From assembly GCA_021774615.1 (NCBI GenBank), contig JAJFIW010000003.1:7867-71866 (forward strand): a stretch of DNA of 64,000 nucleotides, read 5' to 3'. The translations under genes and the position numbers were made by a program. Of this stretch, positions 505-20,845 are shown piece after piece. Source of the DNA: Alphaproteobacteria bacterium (GTDB lineage: Bacteria > Pseudomonadota > Alphaproteobacteria > UBA1280 > UBA6503). Every line of letters starts with the position of its first letter. Within the stretch, counting starts at the first letter, position 1. Below the pieces are notes generated by a model that was given only the letters and a program-made list of their open reading frames with translations, ran no database searches and was not told where the DNA came from.

Positions 505-612
505 AGCACCTTCGACATTCCGAGTCGCCGCAAGGCGAGAGGTTGTCGACAGTCTGCGGAACGCAGCACCAAGCATCTGGCTTTGCCAGTGCGCAGGTGG
601 ATTAAAAAATTG
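505..612 (-). repeat. about 100-nt structured repeat, copy A; directly abuts the 3' end and T-run of rnpB
   Basis: Minus strand reads ATTTTTTAATCCACCTGCGCACTGGCAAAGCCAGATGCTTGGTGCTGCGTTCCGCAGACTGTCGACAACCTCTCGCCTTGCGGCGACTCGGAATG... It is about 80% identical to 8605-8705 on the plus strand. The first hairpin shows compensatory changes: CTGGC/GCCAG here versus TAGGC/GCCTA in copy B. Confidence 0.5.
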
Positions 613-958
613 CAGTTCGCCGATAAGCCGGGTTTTGTCGAGAGCTGTCATTCATCTATGGTAAATGTTGCCATTTACCTTTAGCGACCTACCCGAACGC
701 CTCCTACAAGGGGCAGTCAAACAGCGTTCCTATTTGGTCTTGCACCAGATGGGGTTTTGCGTGCCTTGGGCTGTTACCAGCCAAGCGGTGGGCTCTTACC
801 CCGACCTTTTCACCCTTACCTACCAAAGGCAGGCGGTATATTTTCTGTGCCACTTTCCCTAGGGTTACCCCCGCCAGACGTTATCTGGCATCTTCCTTTA
901 TGGTGCCCGGACTTTCCTCGTTTATGTAAACACAAACGCGACAACTTAGCGAACTGCC
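605..958 (-). ncRNA. rnpB: RNase P RNA, bacterial type A
   Basis: Minus-strand reading contains GAGGAAAGTCCGGGCACCATAAAGGAAGATGCCAGATAACGTCTGGCGGGGGTAACC...GGTAAGGGTGAAAAGGTCGGGGTAAGAGCCCACC...GGTAACAGCCCAAGGCACG...ACCCGGCTTATCGGCGAACTGCAA. These are universally conserved RNase P blocks. P1 pairing is GCAGTTCGC (5', ~957) with GCGAACTGC (3', ~620-612). Ends are approximate to about 5 nt. Confidence 0.85.
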
Positions 959-8710: not shown

Positions 8711-10078
8711 CTAGGCTTGCCATTTCTTAAGCTTACGGTCAAGCGCTGGGCGAGAGATATTTAGAATATCGCAGGTTTTGCCTTTATGGTTACCTGTTGC
8801 TTCTAGAACGTTTAAGATATGCGCTTTTTCTACTTCTTCTAAAGAAATAAGCTGTGTTGAGGCTGTAGGGGCTAGGTCAAGGTCTGTTGTGGCTGCGGCT
8901 GTTGGTAGGTTAGGGTTAATGTCTTCAACGTCTATGTATGCTTGCTGTGCGTGGGCTGCGGCTCTGGTTAAAACGTTCTCTAGCTCGCGGATATTGCCTG
9001 TCCAAGGTTGTGCTTTTAGTTGTGTCATACCATCTAAGGTAATCCCCTTAATGGTTTTACCTAGGCTGTGGTTAATCCGCATTAGTAAGTTGCTTACAAT
9101 CGCGGTGAAGTCAGACATCCGCTCTTTTAAAGTTGGGATGTAAATATCAATAACATCAAGGCGGTAAAATAAATCTTCACGGAACTTGCCCGCCGCTACC
9201 ATTTTGCGTAAATCCCGATGAGTCGCAGCAATAATCCTAGCGTTAGTAGTTAATGTTTTATTGCTACCTACACGCTCAAAGGTTTGCTCTTGTAATACTC
9301 GTAGTAATTTTGCTTGTAAATGTGGCGACATTTCGCCAATTTCGTCAAGGAACAAAGTGCCATTTTCAGCAATCTCGAAACGCCCTTGTTTGGCTTGGTC
9401 AGCACCTGTAAAAGCACCTTTTTCATGCCCAAAAAGTTCGCTCTCGAGCAATGTATCAACAATTGAGGCACAGTTTACAGCAACAAAAGGGCCTTTATGT
9501 TCGCCATGGCTATGAATGGCTTTTGCCACTAGCTCTTTACCTGTTCCTGATGCACCTTGGATAAGTACATTGGCAGTATTTTGGGTGGCAATAGCAATTT
9601 TTTTGCATACTTCAATCATCTCGGCGCTGCTGCCAGTAATTTCAGGGGTAGTATCTTCTTGGGAAGGCGCAGTATTTACCGTAGCTTTTTTAGTGTCAGC
9701 TTTAAGAGCATGGTGAATAATAGTATCAAGCTTTTGTAGGTCTATAGGCTTATGGACATAATCAAAAGCACCTGTTTTCATGGCAGTGATGACTAATTTC
9801 ATATCGTGAAAACCAGTAACCATTACAACTGGCCGCTGGTTGTTGTCTTCCAAGAGCCATTGCAATAATTTTAGACCATTTGTATCGGGCAAGTGTTGGT
9901 CAAGGAGAACAAGCTTACAAGCATTTGTATCTAAAAACTTTTTGGCTTCAGCGCCTGTGTGTGCAATGTGGGTTGTAAGGCCTATATCATCAATGTGTAG
10001 GCTTAGCATTTCAGACAAAGATTCATCATCGTCAATAATTAGAATGTCGCAGGTACTCATTATTGTGGTTGCTCCCAC
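8711..10078 (-). CDS. sigma54-dependent response regulator, NtrC/NtrX family (REC + AAA+ + Fis-type HTH)
   Basis: N-terminal receiver with ILIIDDDES and a phospho-acceptor Asp, an AAA+ domain with GASGTGKE and the ESELFGHEKGAFTGA (GAFTGA) motif, and a C-terminal HTH. Confidence 0.85.
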   Translation of the reverse strand: MGATTIMSTCDILIIDDDESLSEMLSLHIDDIGLTTHIAHTGAEAKKFLDTNACKLVLLDQHLPDTNGLKLLQWLLEDNNQRPVVMVTGFHDMKLVITAMKTGAFDYVHKPIDLQKLDTIIHHALKADTKKATVNTAPSQEDTTPEITGSSAEMIEVCKKIAIATQNTANVLIQGASGTGKELVAKAIHSHGEHKGPFVAVNCASIVDTLLESELFGHEKGAFTGADQAKQGRFEIAENGTLFLDEIGEMSPHLQAKLLRVLQEQTFERVGSNKTLTTNARIIAATHRDLRKMVAAGKFREDLFYRLDVIDIYIPTLKERMSDFTAIVSNLLMRINHSLGKTIKGITLDGMTQLKAQPWTGNIRELENVLTRAAAHAQQAYIDVEDINPNLPTAAATTDLDLAPTASTQLISLEEVEKAHILNVLEATGNHKGKTCDILNISRPALDRKLKKWQA

Positions 10079-10338
10079 TCGTGCGGCGTATAAGCACGAA
10101 TACTAACAGCATGTATTTTATGGTTAGCCAAAAATTGGTCTAACGCTTTATATACTTCTCGATGGCGTTTAATATTATTTTTATTGGCAAAAACATCGCT
10201 AACAATTAGGACGTCGTAATGCCCGCCGCCATGCTCTTTAGCACCTGCATGGTTTTTGTGAAGGTGGCTTTTGTCGACAACATCTATCATCGTTGGATTA
10301 AAAGTATTGGTTAGGATGGTTTTAATTGTATCTAGCAT
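10060..10338 (-). CDS. bolA: BolA-family protein
   Basis: HLHKNHAGAKEHGGGHYDVLIVSDVFANK...RHREVYKALDQ matches the BolA signature. Likely start is MLDTIKTIL; the ORF track starts 18 nt earlier. Confidence 0.75.
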   Translation of the reverse strand: MLDTIKTILTNTFNPTMIDVVDKSHLHKNHAGAKEHGGGHYDVLIVSDVFANKNNIKRHREVYKALDQFLANHKIHAVSIRAYTPHEWEQPQ

Positions 10339-10384
10339 GTATATAATGATACACAATTTTTAAATGAATAACAAAGGCGATATA

Positions 10385-11152
10385 ATGAAAATTACTAGTT
10401 GGAATGTTAACTCTATCCGTGCGCGGCTCGAGCATGTTTTAGATTGGCTCGAGGAGAACGACCCAGATGTATTGTGCCTACAAGAAATAAAAGTGCAAGA
10501 CGAGCATTTCCCTGAGGAGTTATTTGTAGATGCAGGCTGGGAAGTATACCTAAATGGGCAACGCACCTATAATGGGGTTGCGTTGATTAGCAAGGAGCCT
10601 TTGGCTGGTGTTGTTACCAACACAAACATAGAAATCCTCGACGAACAAAGCCGCATTATTGCTGCAGATGTTGGCGATGTGCGGGTTTATAATGTATATG
10701 CACCTAATGGTAAAGCACCAGATACCCCATCATTTGCGTTTAAAGAGGCTTGGTATGCAGCCTTTACCGATTTTATTGCAGCTAACCATAAGCCAACCGA
10801 TAAATTAGTCATTTGCGGCGATTTTAATATTGCTCCCGCCGACATTGACGTTTGGGATGCAGACAAAATGCTAGGGCATTGCTGTTTCCACCCTAGCGAG
10901 CATAAATGGTTAAAACATTTAATGGACTTTGGGCTAATAGATAGCTTCCGTAACCTTTACCCTAACGAGCAAGCCTTCACATGGTGGGATTATCGCCAAG
11001 CTAGTTTCCAGCGTAATAGCGGGATGCGTATCGACCATCATCTAGTGTCGCAAAGCTTACTGCCACTAGTAAAAGATGTTGTGCTAGATAAAGCTGAACG
11101 AGCTAAAGAGCGCCCGTCGGACCATATCCCCGTAACATTAGTACTTAAATAA
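10385..11152 (+). CDS. xthA: exodeoxyribonuclease III
   Basis: MKITSWNVNSIRARLEHVLDWL..., CLQEIKV, ICGDFNIAP and SDHIPV are ExoIII/EEP-family catalytic motifs. ATG at 10385 preferred over the track start at 10364. Confidence 0.85.
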   Translation: MKITSWNVNSIRARLEHVLDWLEENDPDVLCLQEIKVQDEHFPEELFVDAGWEVYLNGQRTYNGVALISKEPLAGVVTNTNIEILDEQSRIIAADVGDVRVYNVYAPNGKAPDTPSFAFKEAWYAAFTDFIAANHKPTDKLVICGDFNIAPADIDVWDADKMLGHCCFHPSEHKWLKHLMDFGLIDSFRNLYPNEQAFTWWDYRQASFQRNSGMRIDHHLVSQSLLPLVKDVVLDKAERAKERPSDHIPVTLVLK

Positions 11153-11153
11153 T

Positions 11154-11183
11154 AAAAAAGCGCCCCACTGGGGGCGCTTTTAA
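11154..11183. terminator. bidirectional Rho-independent terminator between convergent xthA and rpmG
   Basis: AAAAAAGCGCCCCACTGGGGGCGCTTTT. Confidence 0.6.
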
Positions 11184-11199
11184 AATATGCGTAAAAGAA

Positions 11200-11373
11200 T
11201 TAGCTTTTTAGCTTAGTTTCTTTAAATAGAACGTGCTTACGAACAACTGGATCATATTTATTGATTTCCAATTTTTCAGTTGCAGTTCTTGGGTTCTTTT
11301 TAGTTGTATAATAATAGCCTGTATCAGCTGTTGAAACTAGCTTGATGTATTGGCTGTTTGTGCGCTTTGCCAC
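11200..11373 (-). CDS. rpmG: 50S ribosomal protein L33
   Basis: (M)[55 protein letters not shown] is an L33 sequence. There is no in-frame ATG; start inferred as GTG at 11373 preceded by AGAGGG 7 nt upstream. Confidence 0.8.
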
Positions 11374-11504
11374 GGTATTACCCTCTTTAAATCTCGGTTG
11401 TGTCGCATTTTTAAGGCAATATCCATCTAAAGTCAAAAGAAAATCGTAAATAATTGTTATTTTTATTGTATATTAGGCACATATAATAAATAGAAAGCTG
11501 CACC

Positions 11505-12413
11505 ATGACTACAATCGGGCAACAATTTCTTGACGCTATCTACGCCGAAACGGCTCCATTGCTTGTTCTTGGCGCTCCCACACCTTTTGTTGCAATGCAA
11601 ATGGAGGCTAAAGGCTATAAGGCTGCATATTTGTCGGGCGCAGGGATGAGCTATTTTAGCTATGGCATCCCCGATGTAGGTATTTTAGGGCTAGATGAAG
11701 TAGCGGCCGAAGTTCGTAAATTCTGCCGAGTGTGCGACCTACCATTATTGGTAGACGTAGACACAGGTTGGAATGACCCCGAAAAAACAACCCAAACAAT
11801 TATTGCAGCAGGTGCTGCAGGTTTCCATATCGAAGACCAAACCGAGGACAAACGCTGCGGCCATTTAGACGGCAAAAGCATAGTCCCAACCACCGAAATG
11901 GCAGAACGAATTAAAGCGGCTGTAAAAGGCAAAACCTCAGGGCAAATAAAAGACCCTAACTTTATGATTATGGCACGTACCGACGCCTTTGCTATCGAAG
12001 GGTTTGAAGGTGCAATAAAACGGATTGAAGCCTACATAGATGCAGGTGCTACCGCAATTTTCGCCGAAGCCATGACAGACCTAGAGCACTACCGCAAAAT
12101 TAGAGATGTTATCGGTAAAGATATTCCACTACTTGCTAATATGACTGAATACGGCAAAACTCCGCTGTTTTCACAAAGCGAACTCGCCAGCGTGGATGTA
12201 GACATTATGCTACTACCAGTATCCCTTAACCGAGCCATGCACGGCATGACAACAACATGGCTCGACGAAATCAAAAAAACAGGCACAACCCAAGGTATGG
12301 TAGACCGTGGTGAGCTGCGCCCTCGGCACGAATATAGCGATTTAATAGACTATAACCCTCAAACTGATAGCCGTGAGACTGTGCTAGCACGTCTAAATGC
12401 ACGGCATAAATAA
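11505..12413 (+). CDS. prpB: 2-methylisocitrate lyase
   Basis: 302 aa of the ICL/PEP-mutase superfamily with a KRCGH catalytic motif, directly upstream of prpC and prpD. Confidence 0.85.
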   Translation: MTTIGQQFLDAIYAETAPLLVLGAPTPFVAMQMEAKGYKAAYLSGAGMSYFSYGIPDVGILGLDEVAAEVRKFCRVCDLPLLVDVDTGWNDPEKTTQTIIAAGAAGFHIEDQTEDKRCGHLDGKSIVPTTEMAERIKAAVKGKTSGQIKDPNFMIMARTDAFAIEGFEGAIKRIEAYIDAGATAIFAEAMTDLEHYRKIRDVIGKDIPLLANMTEYGKTPLFSQSELASVDVDIMLLPVSLNRAMHGMTTTWLDEIKKTGTTQGMVDRGELRPRHEYSDLIDYNPQTDSRETVLARLNARHK

Positions 12414-13598: not shown

Positions 13599-15056
13599 AT
13601 GAGCAACCTAGCCCACAGCCTAACTGATGACAACACTCGTAAAGATTATGACGAGGTATTGATGAAAATTGCGGATTATGTTTGTGATTTTGTGCCTAGT
13701 TCGACGGAAGATTACGACACTGCTCGTAATTGTTTGATGGACACCCTTGGGTGTGGGTTTTTAGCGTTGAAGTTCCCGCAGTGCCAAGCAATGCTGGGGG
13801 CAGTGGTTGAGGGCGCAGACTTACCTATGGATAAGGGCGGCGTGCCAGTGCCGGGGACTTCCCATACACTTGACCCAATTAAAGCTGCGTTCGACATTGG
13901 CTGCATGGTGCGTTGGCTCGACTATAACGACACGTGGCTTGCTGCCGAGTGGGGGCATCCCAGCGACAACCTTGGTGCAATTTTAGCATCTTGCGACTAC
14001 ATGACCAGAACTGGCAAGAAAAACTATACTGTCCACGATGTGCTTACTTACATGATAAAATCCCATGAAATACAGGGTATTTTAGCACTAGAAAACAGCT
14101 TTAATAAAGTAGGGCTAGACCATGTGGTATTGGTTAAGGTGGCGTCTACTGCTGTTGCAACCCACATTATGGGTGGCACAAAACAACAAGTGCTTGATGC
14201 CGTAAGCCACGCATGGCTAGACGGGCAAAGCCTACGGACTTACCGCCATTCGCCAAATACAGGTAGCCGCAAAAGCTGGGCTGCGGGCGACGCTACCAGC
14301 CGTGCAGTACGCCTTGCATTAATTGTACTAAAAGGCGAAATGGGCTACCCAAGCGTGCTAACCGCACCTACTTGGGGCTTTTATGATGTGTTGTTTAAGG
14401 GTAAAGAGTTTAAATTCCAACGGGAGTTTTCTAGCTACGTAATGGAGAATATTCTATTTAAAATTAGCTTTCCTGCCGAGTTCCATAGCCAAACAGCAGT
14501 AGAAGCTGCGGTAAAACTGCATGATGTAGTTAAAAACCGCCTTGATGATATCGAACGGATTGAGCTAATAACCCACGAGGCCGCAATTCGGATTATTAGC
14601 AAGACTGGTGCACTCCATAACTTTGCCGACCGTGACCATTGCTTGCAATATATGGTGGCAGTGCCACTAATAAAAGGTAACCTTACCGAAGATGACTACT
14701 CGGACGAGGCAGCGTCTAACCCACAAATAGATGTTTTACGAGAAAAAATGGTAGTAAGTGAGGACAAACAATACTCGGTTGACTACCATGACCCCGAAAA
14801 ACGCAGCATTGCTAATGCTATCCAAATTTTCTTTACCAATGGCACAAGCAGCGAAAAAGTAGCGATTGAATACCCAATCGGCCACCGCCGCCGCCGAGAC
14901 GAGGGGATACCAGTGCTAGAAGAAAAGTTTAAACGTAACCTACGAGTTGTTTTTGACGATACCCAAGCCAACAACATTTTCGCACTGTGTAAAGACGTGG
15001 ATAGGCTGAATAAAACACTAGTAACAGACTTTAGCGAGATGCTTATTCGCAGATAA
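13599..15056 (+). CDS. prpD: 2-methylcitrate dehydratase
   Basis: 485-aa MmgE/PrpD-family protein in the prpBCD gene order. Confidence 0.85.
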   Translation: MSNLAHSLTDDNTRKDYDEVLMKIADYVCDFVPSSTEDYDTARNCLMDTLGCGFLALKFPQCQAMLGAVVEGADLPMDKGGVPVPGTSHTLDPIKAAFDIGCMVRWLDYNDTWLAAEWGHPSDNLGAILASCDYMTRTGKKNYTVHDVLTYMIKSHEIQGILALENSFNKVGLDHVVLVKVASTAVATHIMGGTKQQVLDAVSHAWLDGQSLRTYRHSPNTGSRKSWAAGDATSRAVRLALIVLKGEMGYPSVLTAPTWGFYDVLFKGKEFKFQREFSSYVMENILFKISFPAEFHSQTAVEAAVKLHDVVKNRLDDIERIELITHEAAIRIISKTGALHNFADRDHCLQYMVAVPLIKGNLTEDDYSDEAASNPQIDVLREKMVVSEDKQYSVDYHDPEKRSIANAIQIFFTNGTSSEKVAIEYPIGHRRRRDEGIPVLEEKFKRNLRVVFDDTQANNIFALCKDVDRLNKTLVTDFSEMLIRR

Positions 15057-15474
15057 AGCTAACAACACCCCAGCCAAAGTCTTTTTTGACTTCTATTTTT
15101 AGGGGGAGTTCTAAAGTAGGTAGGTGTAGAGTTTGTTCGATAGGTAAGGTTGTAATTACTTGTGCGTAGCTAAATTCTTCAGGTGGGTTATCTATTTCTA
15201 GGGTTAGTACTTCGTCGATAATTCGTAAATGCACAGAATATCCAGGTGACGGCACAACAATTTTACCCCTGGCGTTGATTGCACCGTTCTGAAGGCGGGT
15301 TAATGACAGGCTGTTCTCGTCTTGGGCATGGTCTGGGGTGCAAATTGCAGTTTTTGTTTGTGCCATTACTATAGGCGCAACATACCAGCTACTTAAAAAA
15401 ACAAATGCTAGCAAAAACCTAGTCAATACAGACCTTGTAGCGTGATGTTCTGGCACTTGCAGGTTGTGGTGCAT
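15043..15474 (-). CDS. hypothetical secreted protein
   Basis: Signal-peptide-like segment ...FLLAFVFLSSWYVAPIVMA and two Cys residues. The start is uncertain because it overlaps the tail of the next ORF. Confidence 0.4.
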   Translation of the reverse strand: MHHNLQVPEHHATRSVLTRFLLAFVFLSSWYVAPIVMAQTKTAICTPDHAQDENSLSLTRLQNGAINARGKIVVPSPGYSVHLRIIDEVLTLEIDNPPEEFSYAQVITTLPIEQTLHLPTLELPLKIEVKKDFGWGVVSFICE

Positions 15475-15715
15475 AAACCTTTGGCTGGATAGATGCAGTG
15501 CGTTGTTGCTGCATTCTCTTATTTTTTAATTGCTGCTGTTTTGACGGTTTTATACGGTGCCCGTTAGATGTATAAGTACTTATATAAGTAGGTGCAATAG
15601 CACGTACTGCTTGTGGCTGTGCATCACTACAGCGTACTTTCATGGCATTGGCATTGGGGGTTACAAAGCCAACCATAGCAATGGTTACAATAATAATTAC
15701 GACTAGGTTCTTCAT
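15419..15715 (-). CDS. small secreted Cys-pair protein, paralog A
   Basis: Signal peptide MKNLVVIIIVTIAMVGFVTPNANA, then MKVRCSDAQPQ..., a basic Q-rich middle, and a C-terminus of YKVCID. Confidence 0.5.
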   Translation of the reverse strand: MKNLVVIIIVTIAMVGFVTPNANAMKVRCSDAQPQAVRAIAPTYISTYTSNGHRIKPSKQQQLKNKRMQQQRTASIQPKVYAPQPASARTSRYKVCID

Positions 15716-15747
15716 TTTAAGCTCTTATCTTGGAATGTTTAAATAAA

Positions 15748-16062
15748 TTAGTTGTTACAAACTTTGTAGTTAAGGTTTTTCTGGTCTGCAATCTCAAATT
15801 TCATTGGTGCGTAGCTGTCTTGAGGTTGCGTGGTACCTTTTTTACGGGCTTGTTCTCTATTCTTGCGCTGTAAATCTTTTTTCTCTCTAAGAGTAAGCCT
15901 GTTATTAGCTTTTCTTTCGGCAGCAGGGATTATATTAACGTTACCATTTGTTGTACGTGTTTGTGGGTCGCTACAACGTACTTTTAAGGCAGAAGCATCA
16001 GGGATAGAAACCATAGTAGCAATGGCTACGGTAACAATTGTAAGTATAATTTTGCTTCTCAT
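15748..16062 (-). CDS. small secreted Cys-pair protein, paralog B
   Basis: Signal peptide MRSKIILTIVTVAIATMVSIPDASA, then LKVRCSDPQT..., ending NYKVCNN. Same architecture as 15419-15715. ATG at 16062 preferred over the track start. Confidence 0.5.
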   Translation of the reverse strand: MRSKIILTIVTVAIATMVSIPDASALKVRCSDPQTRTTNGNVNIIPAAERKANNRLTLREKKDLQRKNREQARKKGTTQPQDSYAPMKFEIADQKNLNYKVCNN

Positions 16063-16140
16063 AATTTTGCCTCTAAATAAATATGTAAAATCCAATAACG
16101 CCTCATACATGGGGATGATTTATTATTTTTCAAGTGGTAG

Positions 16141-17289
16141 CTAGCAACCTATTTGCCGCGAGATAACAATTCTTTGCACTTCGCTGGTACCTTCGCCAAT
16201 CTGTAAAATCCGTTGGTCGCGCCATAGGCGCTCTACATCGTACTCGCGCATTAGGCCGTAGCCACCATGGATTTGGATTGCTTGGTCGGTAACTCTGCCT
16301 GCCATTTCGGTGCAGAATAGTTTAGCAATAGCTGCTTGTTTGGTGTAATTCTCGTCGTTGTCACGCATTTTAGCTACACTGTAAAGGTAGGTGCGGGCAA
16401 GGTCTATTTCCATTGCCATGTCGGCAAGTTTAAATGATATTGCTTGGTGTTTTGAAATAGGCTTGCCAAACTGCTTGCGTTCTTTTGCATATGCTAGTGC
16501 TAGCTCGTAGGCACCTTGTGCGTGCCCTAGGCCCATTGCAGCAATACCAAGGCGGCCATAGTCTAGTGCGGTAAACATTTGTTTGCTGCCATTGCCAATT
16601 TCACCGATGATAGCATCATCAGCTACTTCTACATTATCGAAATATACTTCGGCGGTGTCAGACGCTCGCCACATTAGTTTACCATGCATTGGTTTTACGG
16701 TTAGCCCTGGGGTATCTTTTTCGACCAGAAAGCATGTAAGCTCGGGGTTGCCATTTTCTTGGGTACCAGTGCGTGCTTGCACGGTAAGGCCGCCAGAAAG
16801 TTGGTTTGCTACATTGGTAATAAATATTTTAGCGCCATTAATAGCCCAACCACTATTAGTTTTGGTAGCAGTCGTTTCGGTTGCACGGCTGTCTGAGCCT
16901 GCATTAGGCTCGGTTAAACCGAAGCCCCATAGCATTTCGCCAGTGCACATTTTAGGTAGGTATTTTTGTTTTTGTTCTTCTGTCCCGAACATGTACAAAG
17001 GGCCAATCCCAATCGAGTTATGGGCGGTAACGGTTGCTGCTTGCGAGCCATCAATACGGCTTATTTCTTCCATAGCAATAACATAAGAAAGGCTGTCGAG
17101 ACCATGCCCACCATATTCTGGGGCAATGGTCATGCCGAATAGGCCCATTTCACCCATTTTTTTAGTAAGCTCAACCGAGAACTCTTCTTTTTCGTCTAGT
17201 TTTTGGGCAAGGGGTTTTATTTCTTCCTCGGCAAAACGGCGGATAGAGTCCCTAATCATGCGGTGTTCATCGTTTAAAAGAATATCCAT
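16141..17289 (-). CDS. acyl-CoA dehydrogenase
   Basis: ACAD-family motifs across the length (GLTEPNAGSD, YGGYG-like C-terminus). Start taken as ATG at 17289 with AAGAGG 5 nt upstream (MDILLNDEHRM...). Confidence 0.85.
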   Translation of the reverse strand: MDILLNDEHRMIRDSIRRFAEEEIKPLAQKLDEKEEFSVELTKKMGEMGLFGMTIAPEYGGHGLDSLSYVIAMEEISRIDGSQAATVTAHNSIGIGPLYMFGTEEQKQKYLPKMCTGEMLWGFGLTEPNAGSDSRATETTATKTNSGWAINGAKIFITNVANQLSGGLTVQARTGTQENGNPELTCFLVEKDTPGLTVKPMHGKLMWRASDTAEVYFDNVEVADDAIIGEIGNGSKQMFTALDYGRLGIAAMGLGHAQGAYELALAYAKERKQFGKPISKHQAISFKLADMAMEIDLARTYLYSVAKMRDNDENYTKQAAIAKLFCTEMAGRVTDQAIQIHGGYGLMREYDVERLWRDQRILQIGEGTSEVQRIVISRQIGC

Positions 17290-17305
17290 GCTAGACCTCT
17301 TTTCT

Positions 17306-20300
17306 TTAGCTAATAGCGATTTTAATTTTTTGCTTTGTTTTACTATTTGGCAAATGTGCTCCAGGGAGGTGGACTTCGCCAAGTTTTTCTATTTTATCGG
17401 GGTTCTTAAATGCTTCTAGCAGAGTATGTTGTTTTTGTAGAGCTAGTTCTATATGGCGTTCTTTTACATGCCCAAAACCGCGTATTTCTTCGGGGATACG
17501 GGCTAATGCAACGGCTAGTGTATGGTTTTTATTGTTTAGAGCCGTGCAAATTTCGCTAATTAGCTTGATGTAGTCTGTTAGCAATTTACGCTCGGTTTTG
17601 CGTTCGGCTGTATAGTTAAATATATCTAGAGGTGTTCCACGTAAGCCTTTTAATTTAGCAAGAACACGAAATGCTGGTAGCATCCACGAGTTAAACTCCA
17701 TTTTTTGTAGCTCGCCTTTGCTATTCTTTTTAGAAAGCAATGGTGGCGCTAGGTGGAATTTAAGCTTGTAGTCGCCAGTAAATGTATCTTTTAGGCGTTG
17801 CTCAAACTCGCCTGAGGTATATAGGCGTGCTACTTCGTACTCGTCTTTATAGCTCATAAGTTTAAATGCATAGCGGGCTACAGCCTCGGTAAGCATGGTG
17901 CTACCATCTATGGCTTTTTGTTCTGCCTTGGCTACTTTCTCGACTAATTCTTGGTATTTGCTGGCATAGCTAGCATCTTGGTAGCCAGTTAAGTATGTAA
18001 TACGCTTAGAGATTAAGTCCTCGAGTGTTTCAGAGATGCTGTCTTCTTCGATATTATTTGCTTTATGGACAATTTGTTTCACTTGGTTAGGGTCGTGAGC
18101 GGCAAGCCTGCCCCAATTAAACGAGCTAATGTTGCTCTCGACTGCAACCCCGTTAAGAGTAAGAGCTTCGATAATAGATTTATGTGAAACAGGGATTAAA
18201 CCTTGTTGCCAAGCATAACCAAGCATAAACATATTAGTTGCAATAGCGTCACCCATCAGAGTTGTAGCAAGGTGAGTTGCTTCTATAAAAGTGGAGCTAT
18301 CTTTACCAATAGCACCCGCAATTTTTGCCATTGTTTCAGTCTCATGGAAGTTGGTGTCCGGGTCTAGGGTAAAGTTAGCAGTTGGTGTCATGTGGCTATT
18401 AATTATTGCGGTTGTACGCTTAGCCGACATACGGCTTAATGCTTTAGAATTACCAGACACAACCATATCGCAACCTAGAACAAGGTCGGCATTACCAATT
18501 GCAATGCGTACTGCGTGTAAATCTTCTGGGTTCTCGGCAATGCGTAGATGGCTCATTACAGCACCATTTTTTTGTGCTAACCCTGTTTGGTCAAGTATAG
18601 TAACGCCTTTGCCGTCAATATGAGCAGCCATACCCAAAATAGCGCCAATGGTAATAACACCTGTACCGCCAATACCAGTAATCAGCATGTTATAGGAGCC
18701 AGATATATTAGGTATTTTTGGCTCGGGTATTTGGGTAAATTTTTGGCTGCTACTGTCTTGTTTCTCACCTTTTTTAAGTGTGCCACCTTCAACCGTAACA
18801 AAGCTAGGGCAAAAACCATTAGTACAAGAGTAATCTTTATTACAGCTAGATTGGTTAATTTGGCGTTTGCGGCCAAACTCTGTTTCCAGAGGCTCAACTG
18901 CAACACAGTTTGATTTTTCAGAACAATCGCCACAACCTTCGCAAACTAGCGGGTTAATAAAAGCACGTTTTGCTGGGTCTGGGTATTTGCCACGCTTACG
19001 GCGGCGGCGTTTTTCGGCCGCACAAGTTTGGTCATAAATAAGGATAGATGTGCCTTTGGTATCGCGTAGGTCTTTTTGCACGTCTTCTAAACTATCGCGG
19101 TGCTTAATAATAGTCCCGGCTGCAAATTCTGATTTTGAGGTATATTTCTCTGGCTCGTCAGACATTACGTAGATTTTGCTAACACCTTCAGCAGCCATTT
19201 GTTGGCTTACACGCTGTACCGATAATGGGCCTTCAACAGTTTGCCCACCTGTCATGGCGATAACATCGTTATAAAGGATTTTGTAGGTTATATTAACCCC
19301 ACTAGCAACCGCTTGGCGGACTGCTAAACTGCCCGAGTGGTAATAAGTGCCGTCACCAAGGTTTGCAAAAACATGTGGTTCGCTAGTAAATGGCGCATGG
19401 CCAACCCAGTTAACACCCTCGCCACCCATATGGGTGATGATATTAGAGCTACGGTTCATCCATTGTACCATATAGTGGCAGCCAATACCTGCAATAGCAC
19501 GGCTTCCCTCTATAACTTTGGTAGATATATTATGTGGGCAACCAGCGCAGTAATATGGCAAACGTACTACTTTGTCTTCATAGCTTATTTGCTGCTGTTT
19601 TAGAGTTTCTATGTAGGCAGCATTTTTCTTTATGTCTGTATCGTTGAACATTTTCTCGATACGCTTAGCAATAACTTCCGCCACCATTCGTGGGGTGTGT
19701 CCACCAGCAAATGGTAGTAGTTGTTCGCCGGTTTCATCGTACTTACCAACAACAATAGGTTTTTGGTTTGCAGGTAGGTTAAACATTAATGATTTTAGCT
19801 GTTGCTCAATCATTTCACGTTTTTCTTCGACTACTAAAATTTCTTCTAGGCCTTCGGCAAACTCTAGTGCTCCTTGTGGCTCAATCGGCCAGACTAGACC
19901 AACCTTATAGACACGAATACCTAATTTTTCGGCTTTTTTGTGGCTAATCCCAAGGTCATCAAAAGCTTGCAATACATCTTTATAAGATTTACCGCTAGTA
20001 ATAATGCCAAGCCGCGCTTTTTTACTGTCAATTATGGTTTGGTCAACCTTGTTTGCACGAGCATAAGCAATAGCAGCATTTGCCTTGTCTTGGAGGCGCA
20101 TTTCCTGTGCTAGTGGCGGGTCTGGCATCCGAATACTAAGCCCACCCTCGGGTATGCTATGGTCGGTAGGGGTTTGTAGTTTTATGCGGTCGGGCGATGT
20201 TTCGATGCTGGCCGAGCTTTCTACAACTTCGGTAGCGCATTTCATGCTGACCCAGCAACCTGCATAGCGGCTCATGCCCCAGCCAATAAGGCCAAAGTCG

Positions 20301-20845
20301 ATAAATTCTTGCACGGTAGATGGGTATAAAACAGGTACCATTGCTGCTATCATGTCTTGTTCAGACTGGTGGCCTAGGGTTGATGATACGCAGTCGTGGT
20401 CGTCGCCCATAAGTGCTAGCACGCCACCATATTGAGAAGTGCCAGCAGCATTGGCATGTTTAAAAACATCCATGCTGCGGTCAACACCAGGGCCTTTGCC
20501 GTACCACATACCGAATACGCCGTCGTATTTTGCACCTGGAAAAAGGGTTGTTTGCTGTGTTCCCCAAACAGCAGTAGCGCCTAAATCTTCGTTAATACCA
20601 GGGGTGAATTTAATTTGGTGGTTTTCTAGGTATTTACTGGCATAGCTTAACTGCTTGTCGAGCCCCGCTAAAGGAGAGCCACGGTAGCCGCTAACAAAGC
20701 CTGCGGTATTAAGGCCATTTGCCAAGTCCATATCCCGTTGGAGCATTGGTAGGCGGACTAGTGCTTGCGAACCTGAAACAAAAATACGCCCTTTTATGAG
20801 GGTGTATTTATCTTCTAGAGATACTTTGTGTAGACTTTGAGCCAT
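17306..20845 (-). CDS. fused indolepyruvate/2-oxoacid:ferredoxin oxidoreductase family protein (alpha-beta-gamma fusion)
   Basis: 1179 aa. N-terminus DKYTLIKGRIFVSGSQALVRLPMLQ is characteristic of the fused IOR/OFOR family. Contains a TPP-binding region, two 4Fe-4S Cys clusters (CAGCPHN..., CEGCGDCSEKSNC) and a C-terminal gamma-like domain. Confidence 0.8.
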   Translation of the reverse strand: MAQSLHKVSLEDKYTLIKGRIFVSGSQALVRLPMLQRDMDLANGLNTAGFVSGYRGSPLAGLDKQLSYASKYLENHQIKFTPGINEDLGATAVWGTQQTTLFPGAKYDGVFGMWYGKGPGVDRSMDVFKHANAAGTSQYGGVLALMGDDHDCVSSTLGHQSEQDMIAAMVPVLYPSTVQEFIDFGLIGWGMSRYAGCWVSMKCATEVVESSASIETSPDRIKLQTPTDHSIPEGGLSIRMPDPPLAQEMRLQDKANAAIAYARANKVDQTIIDSKKARLGIITSGKSYKDVLQAFDDLGISHKKAEKLGIRVYKVGLVWPIEPQGALEFAEGLEEILVVEEKREMIEQQLKSLMFNLPANQKPIVVGKYDETGEQLLPFAGGHTPRMVAEVIAKRIEKMFNDTDIKKNAAYIETLKQQQISYEDKVVRLPYYCAGCPHNISTKVIEGSRAIAGIGCHYMVQWMNRSSNIITHMGGEGVNWVGHAPFTSEPHVFANLGDGTYYHSGSLAVRQAVASGVNITYKILYNDVIAMTGGQTVEGPLSVQRVSQQMAAEGVSKIYVMSDEPEKYTSKSEFAAGTIIKHRDSLEDVQKDLRDTKGTSILIYDQTCAAEKRRRRKRGKYPDPAKRAFINPLVCEGCGDCSEKSNCVAVEPLETEFGRKRQINQSSCNKDYSCTNGFCPSFVTVEGGTLKKGEKQDSSSQKFTQIPEPKIPNISGSYNMLITGIGGTGVITIGAILGMAAHIDGKGVTILDQTGLAQKNGAVMSHLRIAENPEDLHAVRIAIGNADLVLGCDMVVSGNSKALSRMSAKRTTAIINSHMTPTANFTLDPDTNFHETETMAKIAGAIGKDSSTFIEATHLATTLMGDAIATNMFMLGYAWQQGLIPVSHKSIIEALTLNGVAVESNISSFNWGRLAAHDPNQVKQIVHKANNIEEDSISETLEDLISKRITYLTGYQDASYASKYQELVEKVAKAEQKAIDGSTMLTEAVARYAFKLMSYKDEYEVARLYTSGEFEQRLKDTFTGDYKLKFHLAPPLLSKKNSKGELQKMEFNSWMLPAFRVLAKLKGLRGTPLDIFNYTAERKTERKLLTDYIKLISEICTALNNKNHTLAVALARIPEEIRGFGHVKERHIELALQKQHTLLEAFKNPDKIEKLGEVHLPGAHLPNSKTKQKIKIAIS

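Follow-up and report, generated by a model that had tools for sequence, protein, structure and literature searches.

Three small open reading frames (ORFs), which we call A, B and C, lie between prpD and an acyl-CoA dehydrogenase gene (ACAD), on the minus strand of a 64,000-nucleotide (nt) stretch of contig JAJFIW010000003.1 (assembly GCA_021774615.1, Alphaproteobacteria bacterium); the whole of that stretch is hereafter the window. Upstream of ACAD on the same strand lies a gene for a fused indolepyruvate/2-oxoacid:ferredoxin oxidoreductase family protein (IOR), and the coordinates of all these features are collected in Table 1. An earlier reading of the window, made from its letters alone and referred to below as the sequence-only reading, had described the three ORFs as a cluster of small secreted proteins that includes a tandem paralog pair. 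The ORFs do exist as described, and low ratios of nonsynonymous to synonymous substitution rates (dN/dS, 0.09-0.22) support their being coding. Comparison with related loci places them in a different context, in which the conserved unit is IOR-ACAD-A-C and not the A/B pair.

Table 1. Minus-strand features of the window that make up the IOR-ACAD-A-C unit and the additional gene B (aa, amino acids).
Feature	Position	Strand	Description
Gene A	15748..16062	-	A-type small protein, predicted to be exported, 104 aa; based on ORF, start, dN/dS, composition and orthologs
Gene B	15419..15715	-	Tandem paralog of A, 98 aa
Gene C	15043..15426	-	C-type acidic protein, probably a beta-sandwich, 127 aa from TTG 15426; alternative ATG 15474 gives 143 aa
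ACAD-A spacer	16063..16140	-	78 nt, holds the Shine-Dalgarno sequence of A (AGAGG)
Acyl-CoA dehydrogenase (ACAD)	16141..17292	-	383 aa from ATG 17292; Pfam Acyl-CoA_dh_N/M/1 and synteny
Fused indolepyruvate/2-oxoacid:ferredoxin oxidoreductase family protein (IOR)	17306..20845	-	1179 aa; Pfam POR, TPP_enzyme_C, DUF6537

Wherever a contig with a C homolog continues upstream, an A-type gene directly precedes C and overlaps it, by 17 nt in the relatives (...CATGAATGyrTTAACTAA...) and by 8 nt in the window, where that gene is B. ACAD is the next gene upstream of the module in every related locus, and wherever the contig reaches further, IOR precedes ACAD. The order ACAD-A-C is seen in L003, L085, L086, L089, L090, L091 and L092, and the IOR-ACAD-module order of the window recurs in L089 and L092. 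Spacing within the unit is tight, with the IOR stop lying 13 nt before the ACAD start and, in five of six related contigs, 11-12 nt containing a Shine-Dalgarno sequence between the ACAD stop and the A-type start (264 nt in L086). The corresponding gap of the window is expanded compared with most relatives; it holds no stable terminator, hairpin or regulatory RNA, and its RNA fold is no better than that of shuffled sequences (z = +2.05). We infer that IOR, ACAD, A and C are carried on one transcript with translational coupling, IOR being the first catabolic gene of this operon. The position "after prpD" given in the sequence-only reading thus gives way to one at the tail of the IOR-ACAD operon. 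Two A-type genes are present only in the window lineage, that is, in the window and in its closest relative, the 1-kb Logan contig L001, whereas all other loci have one. B is therefore a lineage-specific tandem duplicate, and the paralog pair is a recent duplication within an older two-gene unit. The third ORF does overlap the pair, as had been reported, but the overlap is not incidental, since C is the constant partner of the A-type gene.

Genes A and B are true paralogs. Both encode a predicted signal peptide, ending in ASA (A) or ANA (B), then [LM]KVRCSD[PA]Q, a basic middle rich in Gln, Arg and Lys, and a C-terminal YKVC[NI][ND]. Full-length BLASTP aligns them at 30% identity (E = 3e-12), and the similarity exceeds that of two shared signal peptides because the mature parts, compared without them, still reach a Smith-Waterman score of 72 against 2000 shuffles (mean 26.7, standard deviation 5.1, maximum 51; z = 8.9). 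Mature A has 79 aa, a net charge of +10, an isoelectric point (pI) of 10.1 and cysteines at positions 5 and 77 (Cys5, Cys77), and mature B has 74 aa, a net charge of +12, a pI of 10.6 and Cys5 and Cys72; the grand average of hydropathy (GRAVY) of the two is -0.9 to -1.4. Among eight diverged A-type sequences, V3, C5, D7 and Q9 (mature numbering) are invariant, and the C-end conserves a [YF]xP motif and a Cys three residues from the terminus. Both cysteines are invariant in these eight sequences, in agreement with the pair of conserved cysteines described earlier, and also in the C-type family. The roughly 60 residues of the A-type middle are hydrophilic and basic and vary in sequence and length, and the net charge falls from +10/+12 in the window to between +2 and +6 in other lineages. 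The further paralogs that the sequence-only reading had proposed to seek did not turn up: neither tblastn and a motif scan of the window nor the source contig's proteins in a 5.8-billion-protein collection yielded one.

Gene A begins at ATG 16062 (MRSK...), with AGAGG 8 nt upstream; the alternative ATG 16110, which would give a 120-aa product, was rejected because a 4-nt indel puts it out of frame in L001, where the A ortholog is 73% identical. The start of a B ortholog (MKNLVVTIIVTIAMVGSITPDAHALKV) is visible at the end of the same contig. C starts either at ATG 15474, overlapping B by 56 nt, or at TTG 15426, overlapping it by 8 nt (TTGACTAG). The TTG start also has AAGG 6 nt before it, and both starts lead to the same predicted mature protein. 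For ACAD, the mechanical ORF start at TTG 17382, which would overlap IOR, was discarded in favor of ATG 17292, since homologs begin MDxLLNEEH.

Compared with L001, the window gives a dN/dS of 0.20 for A (at a synonymous divergence, dS, of 0.74) and 0.027 for ACAD. More distant loci give approximately 0.09-0.12 for A-type genes (where dS is measurable), 0.10-0.22 for C-type genes and 0.02-0.06 for ACAD. These low values indicate that both small genes are constrained. A-type and C-type proteins nevertheless evolve about ten times faster than ACAD (dN ~0.27 versus 0.03); both small families are under purifying selection, yet fast-evolving, and the genes are coding. The length of plus-strand antisense ORFs opposite the module is not conserved. 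The DNA encoding the A signal peptide and KVRCSDPQ (window 15988-16062 versus L001 618-692) is better conserved than the rest of A, synonymous sites included, with approximately 6 differences in 80 nt. The GC content of the module is slightly lower (0.39-0.42 versus 0.43-0.48), which raised horizontal transfer or a genomic island as a candidate, but the conserved synteny argues against recent acquisition.

Synteny around the module is the same in seven related contigs, and its neighbors are argS, IOR, ACAD, prpBCD, exonuclease III and an NtrC-type regulator. No export, immunity, lysis or mobility genes lie within ~7 kb of it. The link to prpD is incidental because the genes downstream of C vary: the window, L089, L090 and L091 have the prpBCD methylcitrate genes in the interval from C to exonuclease III, and UBA6503-type contigs (L003, L092, L088) have no prpBCD at that position and a 4HBT thioesterase gene instead, with rpmG also in L088. 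There is thus a presence/absence polymorphism beside the module. In the window, C runs toward the plus-strand prpD, whose last nucleotide is 15056, and the two genes share 14 nt at their 3' ends (15043-15056); any terminator of one must therefore lie inside the other. In L089, prpD and prpC are separated by additional DNA (9954-11832) carrying a DndB-like gene (PF14072) and a gene of 179 aa, possibly a defense-gene insertion within the prp cluster. Elsewhere in the window, a full-length bacterial RNase P RNA class A (608-957, minus strand, 314 bits) is the sole Rfam match.

The A-type and C-type families have no detectable relative outside a small clade of uncultured marine proteobacteria. Pfam and NCBIfam give no match above cut-off for A, B, C or any homolog, PHROGs and PADLOC give none better than E = 0.1, and searches of PDB sequence profiles with both families return chance matches only, in line with the earlier impression that no known family is recognizable. 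Weak matches to RXLR, TadE, ComGC, YhcN and DotG were rejected as far below the cut-offs; most begin in the first residues and so include the hydrophobic N-terminus. An exhaustive phmmer search with A, B and C against 1.84 billion (1.84e9) representatives recovered 7 proteins, namely the window's own clusters, an A ortholog (P0003) and four C homologs at 31-38% identity, and a profile search of 5.8 billion clusters with the paired A+C alignment recovered 12. The relatives recovered, about a dozen, all come from marine metagenome-assembled genomes (MAGs) or metagenomes labelled Magnetococcales. Where they carry a name at all, it is either "hypothetical protein [Magnetococcales bacterium]" (MBA44053.1, MBA44054.1) or a Tara Oceans mesopelagic gene identifier.

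When the neighboring ACAD was used to scan GTDB genomes, the nearest matches were uncultured MAGs, UBA6503 at 86% and RI_95 at 83%, followed by Magnetococcales- and Alphaproteobacteria-labelled MAGs at 68-73%. Among these genomes only UBA6503 has the module, which is absent after ACAD in RI_95 and the 68-73% group (the next relatives, L004-L007). The conservation in relatives that the sequence-only reading had asked about thus holds for UBA6503 and the related contigs, and a lack of conserved homologs, which would have refuted that reading, is not observed. In the RI_95 MAG (L004 7052-7684, ACAD 83% identical), the slot after ACAD is filled by an unrelated Cys-rich, secreted-looking ORF with a signal peptide (MRTALFIPLILPLTAQA) followed by ~12 Cys. 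A metagenome scan for more members re-found only a UBA6503-type contig and one fragment, and a literature search found no paper mentioning UBA6503.

A, B and C very likely carry Sec-type signal peptides, as the sequence-only reading had supposed. We applied a heuristic motif test for substrates of Sec and signal peptidase I, with a positive n-region, an h-region of 7-15 or more residues and small residues at -3/-1, and all three proteins show this pattern. The predicted peptide of A comprises codons 1-25 (15988-16062) and reads MRSK, IILTIVTVAIATMVSI and PDASA, with LKVRCSD following the site; that of B comprises codons 1-24 (15644-15715) and reads MKN, LVVIIIVTIAMVGFV and TPNANA (...PNANA before MKVRCSD); and that of C reads MTR, FLLAFVFLSSWYVAPIV and MA (...PIVMA before QTKTAIC). 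Ala at -3 and -1 (A23, A25) is invariant across the eight A-type sequences while the hydrophobic core drifts, which is the pattern of a signal peptidase I substrate, and the predicted signal peptides of C homologs end in AQA, AWA, AYA, AFA or SWA. No lipobox ([LVI][ASTVI][GAS]C with Cys at +1) is present in A, B or C-type proteins: the residues before the Cys are K-V-R in A and B and A-I, I-T, I-N, L-N or L-D in C-type proteins, and the Cys lies 5-9 residues or more past the AxA site in all of them. The A, B and C sequences also lack a twin-arginine motif.

The mature C protein has 105 aa, a pI of 4.9 and cysteines at positions 7 and 104 (Cys7, Cys104), and the C-type family has a net charge of -2 to -7 and the conserved core motifs PSPxY, DQT..PPL and K.F.WG..F.C. 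Modeled alone from an alignment of eight sequences, C folds into eight beta strands (predicted local distance difference test score, pLDDT, 88.3; predicted template modeling score, pTM, 0.80), with Cys7 on the first strand and Cys104 on the last. Going by this model, C is probably an acidic beta-sandwich of the Greek-key type, and its own disulfide probably staples the first strand to the last. Foldseek searches with the model found no PDB or viral match (best E = 0.38, template modeling score, TM, at most 0.35). The Greek-key beta-barrel of Cu,Zn superoxide dismutase and CCS domain 2 (SodC-like) shares only 7-12% identity with C, at a Z below the usual homology level for 105 residues. The C family has no Cu/Zn site, because no His or Asp is among its invariant residues, and none of eight members matches Pfam Sod_Cu. 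The model indicates a generic Greek-key resemblance lacking metal ligands, with weak similarity to known folds.

The PliC/MliC lysozyme inhibitors and the Inh/AprI protease inhibitor are acidic, periplasmic, eight-stranded all-beta proteins of ~100 aa with one disulfide. C resembles them in size, charge and modeled all-beta fold, as well as in its predicted periplasmic location and disulfide. However, their family motifs are absent from C, which has no Pfam match, and PliC appears only at rank 50 of the Foldseek list for C (E = 3.3, TM 0.29-0.34, not significant). A more distant relationship between A and C themselves was considered when MAFFT lined up their cysteines, and was set aside on an hhalign probability of 0.13%.

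One possible hypothesis, which we favor at a rough probability of 0.45, is that the window carries, in A, B and C, its own form of a lineage-restricted, co-translated periplasmic pair, made up of a polycation (A-type) and an acidic binder (C). Sec would export the three proteins and signal peptidase I would cleave them after the AxA site, and in the oxidizing periplasm each would form a single disulfide linking the Cys near its N-end to the one near its C-end. In A and B this disulfide would join the sole conserved segments, the N-end xVxCxDxQ and the C-end [YF]xP...Cx[ND], into a small clasp closing a variable, hydrophilic, largely disordered basic loop of ~65 residues. Translational coupling would bring the polycationic A/B and the acidic C into the periplasm together, where C may bind A/B through the clasp, electrostatics or both, as a holder or neutralizing partner. 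The charges of the two partners are indeed opposite (A-type +2 to +12, C-type -2 to -7). The pair would act on the cell envelope, not on the cytoplasmic chemistry of IOR and ACAD, with which it would share only an expression signal; a surface or envelope association, the former suggested in the sequence-only reading, is possible.

Several points weigh against a periplasmic pair. Charge complementarity is weak in some loci, where the A-type protein has a charge of +2, and tight gene spacing in a compact genome is no proof of a functional link. Export and cleavage of the three proteins rest on motif logic, and the Lys or Arg that mature A and B carry at +2 and +4 is slightly unfavorable for Sec export. 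Additionally, an AlphaFold2 (AF2) model of A fused to C, through a linker taken from the window's IOR, shows no confident arrangement and so gives no support for docking (pTM 0.48). The A part of that model has pLDDT 37-55 except for a helix at residues 33-49 (~80), and because the alignment for A was only two sequences deep, these low values may stem from sparse data and not from disorder. The A-type middle is provisionally taken as largely disordered on the strength of the model.

The same fusion model, lacking evidence of docking, is what one would expect if A, B and C were independent periplasmic proteins with no specific complex between them. A and B would then be stand-alone basic disordered proteins of the envelope-stress or chaperone kind, C an unrelated beta-sandwich, and their co-location the result of operon hitch-hiking in a compact genome. 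The strongly basic, hydrophilic mature parts of A and B, the low model confidence for A and the fast-evolving, non-conserved middle region all fit such a picture, for which Asr of E. coli, a periplasmic, intrinsically disordered chaperone (PMC10746267) that supports outer-membrane integrity, provides a precedent. With Asr, A and B share a precursor of ~100 aa that is basic and hydrophilic in its mature part and, by prediction, a Sec signal peptide and a periplasmic location; the disorder predicted for that mature part is provisional in A/B. Asr differs in having neither a Cys pair nor a coupled partner gene, whereas the A-type protein has conserved termini joined by a putative disulfide. Pfam and NCBIfam reveal no Asr homology and exhaustive phmmer only clade-restricted relatives, and no similarity to Asr or a stress family is seen beyond the NCBIfam YhcN match (E = 0.15, residues 4-63 including the signal peptide). 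A-type proteins are, moreover, only mildly basic in most lineages. A-type and C-type genes always co-occur, overlapping by 8-17 nt in every locus seen, and such linkage across saturated dS exceeds usual hitch-hiking. An Asr-like protein is therefore a reasonable functional analog that leaves the obligatory partner gene unexplained, and we regard full independence of the three proteins as unlikely.

The sequence-only reading had also raised a bacteriocin or effector role. On a view of this kind, A and B would be Sec-exported cationic antimicrobials diversified by duplication and C the producer's periplasmic immunity or neutralizing protein. Small, strongly cationic, fast-evolving proteins with a putative disulfide and a lineage-specific duplication, followed by a translationally coupled acidic partner, do recall such systems. 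Sec-dependent class II bacteriocins belong to Gram-positive bacteria, where immunity usually comes from helical proteins of the membrane or cytoplasm. They share with the module a small cationic disulfide protein, a Sec-type leader, a co-expressed small partner and tandem duplication, the disulfide and the co-expression being inferred here. The module differs from them in that its partner is predicted to be an exported beta-sandwich, it keeps a constant place in a catabolic operon and it shows no detected homology to them. Neither homology to class II bacteriocins or microcins nor a dedicated exporter or release gene nearby was found, and the distribution is not that of a variable accessory genome. 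No outer-membrane exporter, ABC or peptidase C39 transporter, lysis or mobility gene lies within ~7 kb, and no bacteriocin, immunity or defense model is matched. The position inside a core catabolic operon is fixed in all lineages, across saturated synonymous sites, rather than patchy at the strain level; selection is purifying rather than diversifying; and A-type proteins are weakly cationic in most lineages. On this evidence we consider the antimicrobial role quite improbable. That the N-terminal segments of A and B are uncleaved signal anchors, making them bitopic inner-membrane proteins (for example small regulatory ones) with a basic periplasmic or cytoplasmic tail next to a soluble periplasmic C, is highly doubtful: the hydrophobic core of 16-18 residues and the basic residues at +2/+4, which can impair cleavage or export, would suit it, but the AxA motif, with Pro or Asp as a helix breaker in the c-region, does not vary among diverged sequences, as expected only if signal peptidase I uses it, and the invariant Cys pair suits an oxidizing compartment.

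The favored pair of exported polycation and acidic binder can be extended to a bolder proposal, in which the module is an undescribed periplasmic two-protein system. Here a dedicated acidic beta-sandwich, representing a new fold family, would hold a polycationic loop whose ends are clasped together and closed by a disulfide, and the system would be hard-wired to the IOR/ACAD operon, linking amino-acid or branched-chain acid catabolism to an envelope function such as outer-membrane stabilization, buffering of cations or polyanions, or a self-neutralized antimicrobial. We consider this a long shot. Nothing so far points to an unusual mechanism, and for now the module stands as one of many lineage-specific orphan modules.

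The analysis corrects two gene starts and brings forward, in C, a small and confidently modeled domain with weak similarity to known folds. If the periplasmic pair is real, two new protein families could be defined that have no Pfam or PDB relatives, and for which the export signals, the invariant residues and the gene partnership are already apparent. Their hosts are abundant but uncultured mesopelagic marine bacteria. Exported proteins strictly coupled to a cytoplasmic catabolic operon would be unusual, and would suggest a link between catabolism and the cell envelope in these organisms.

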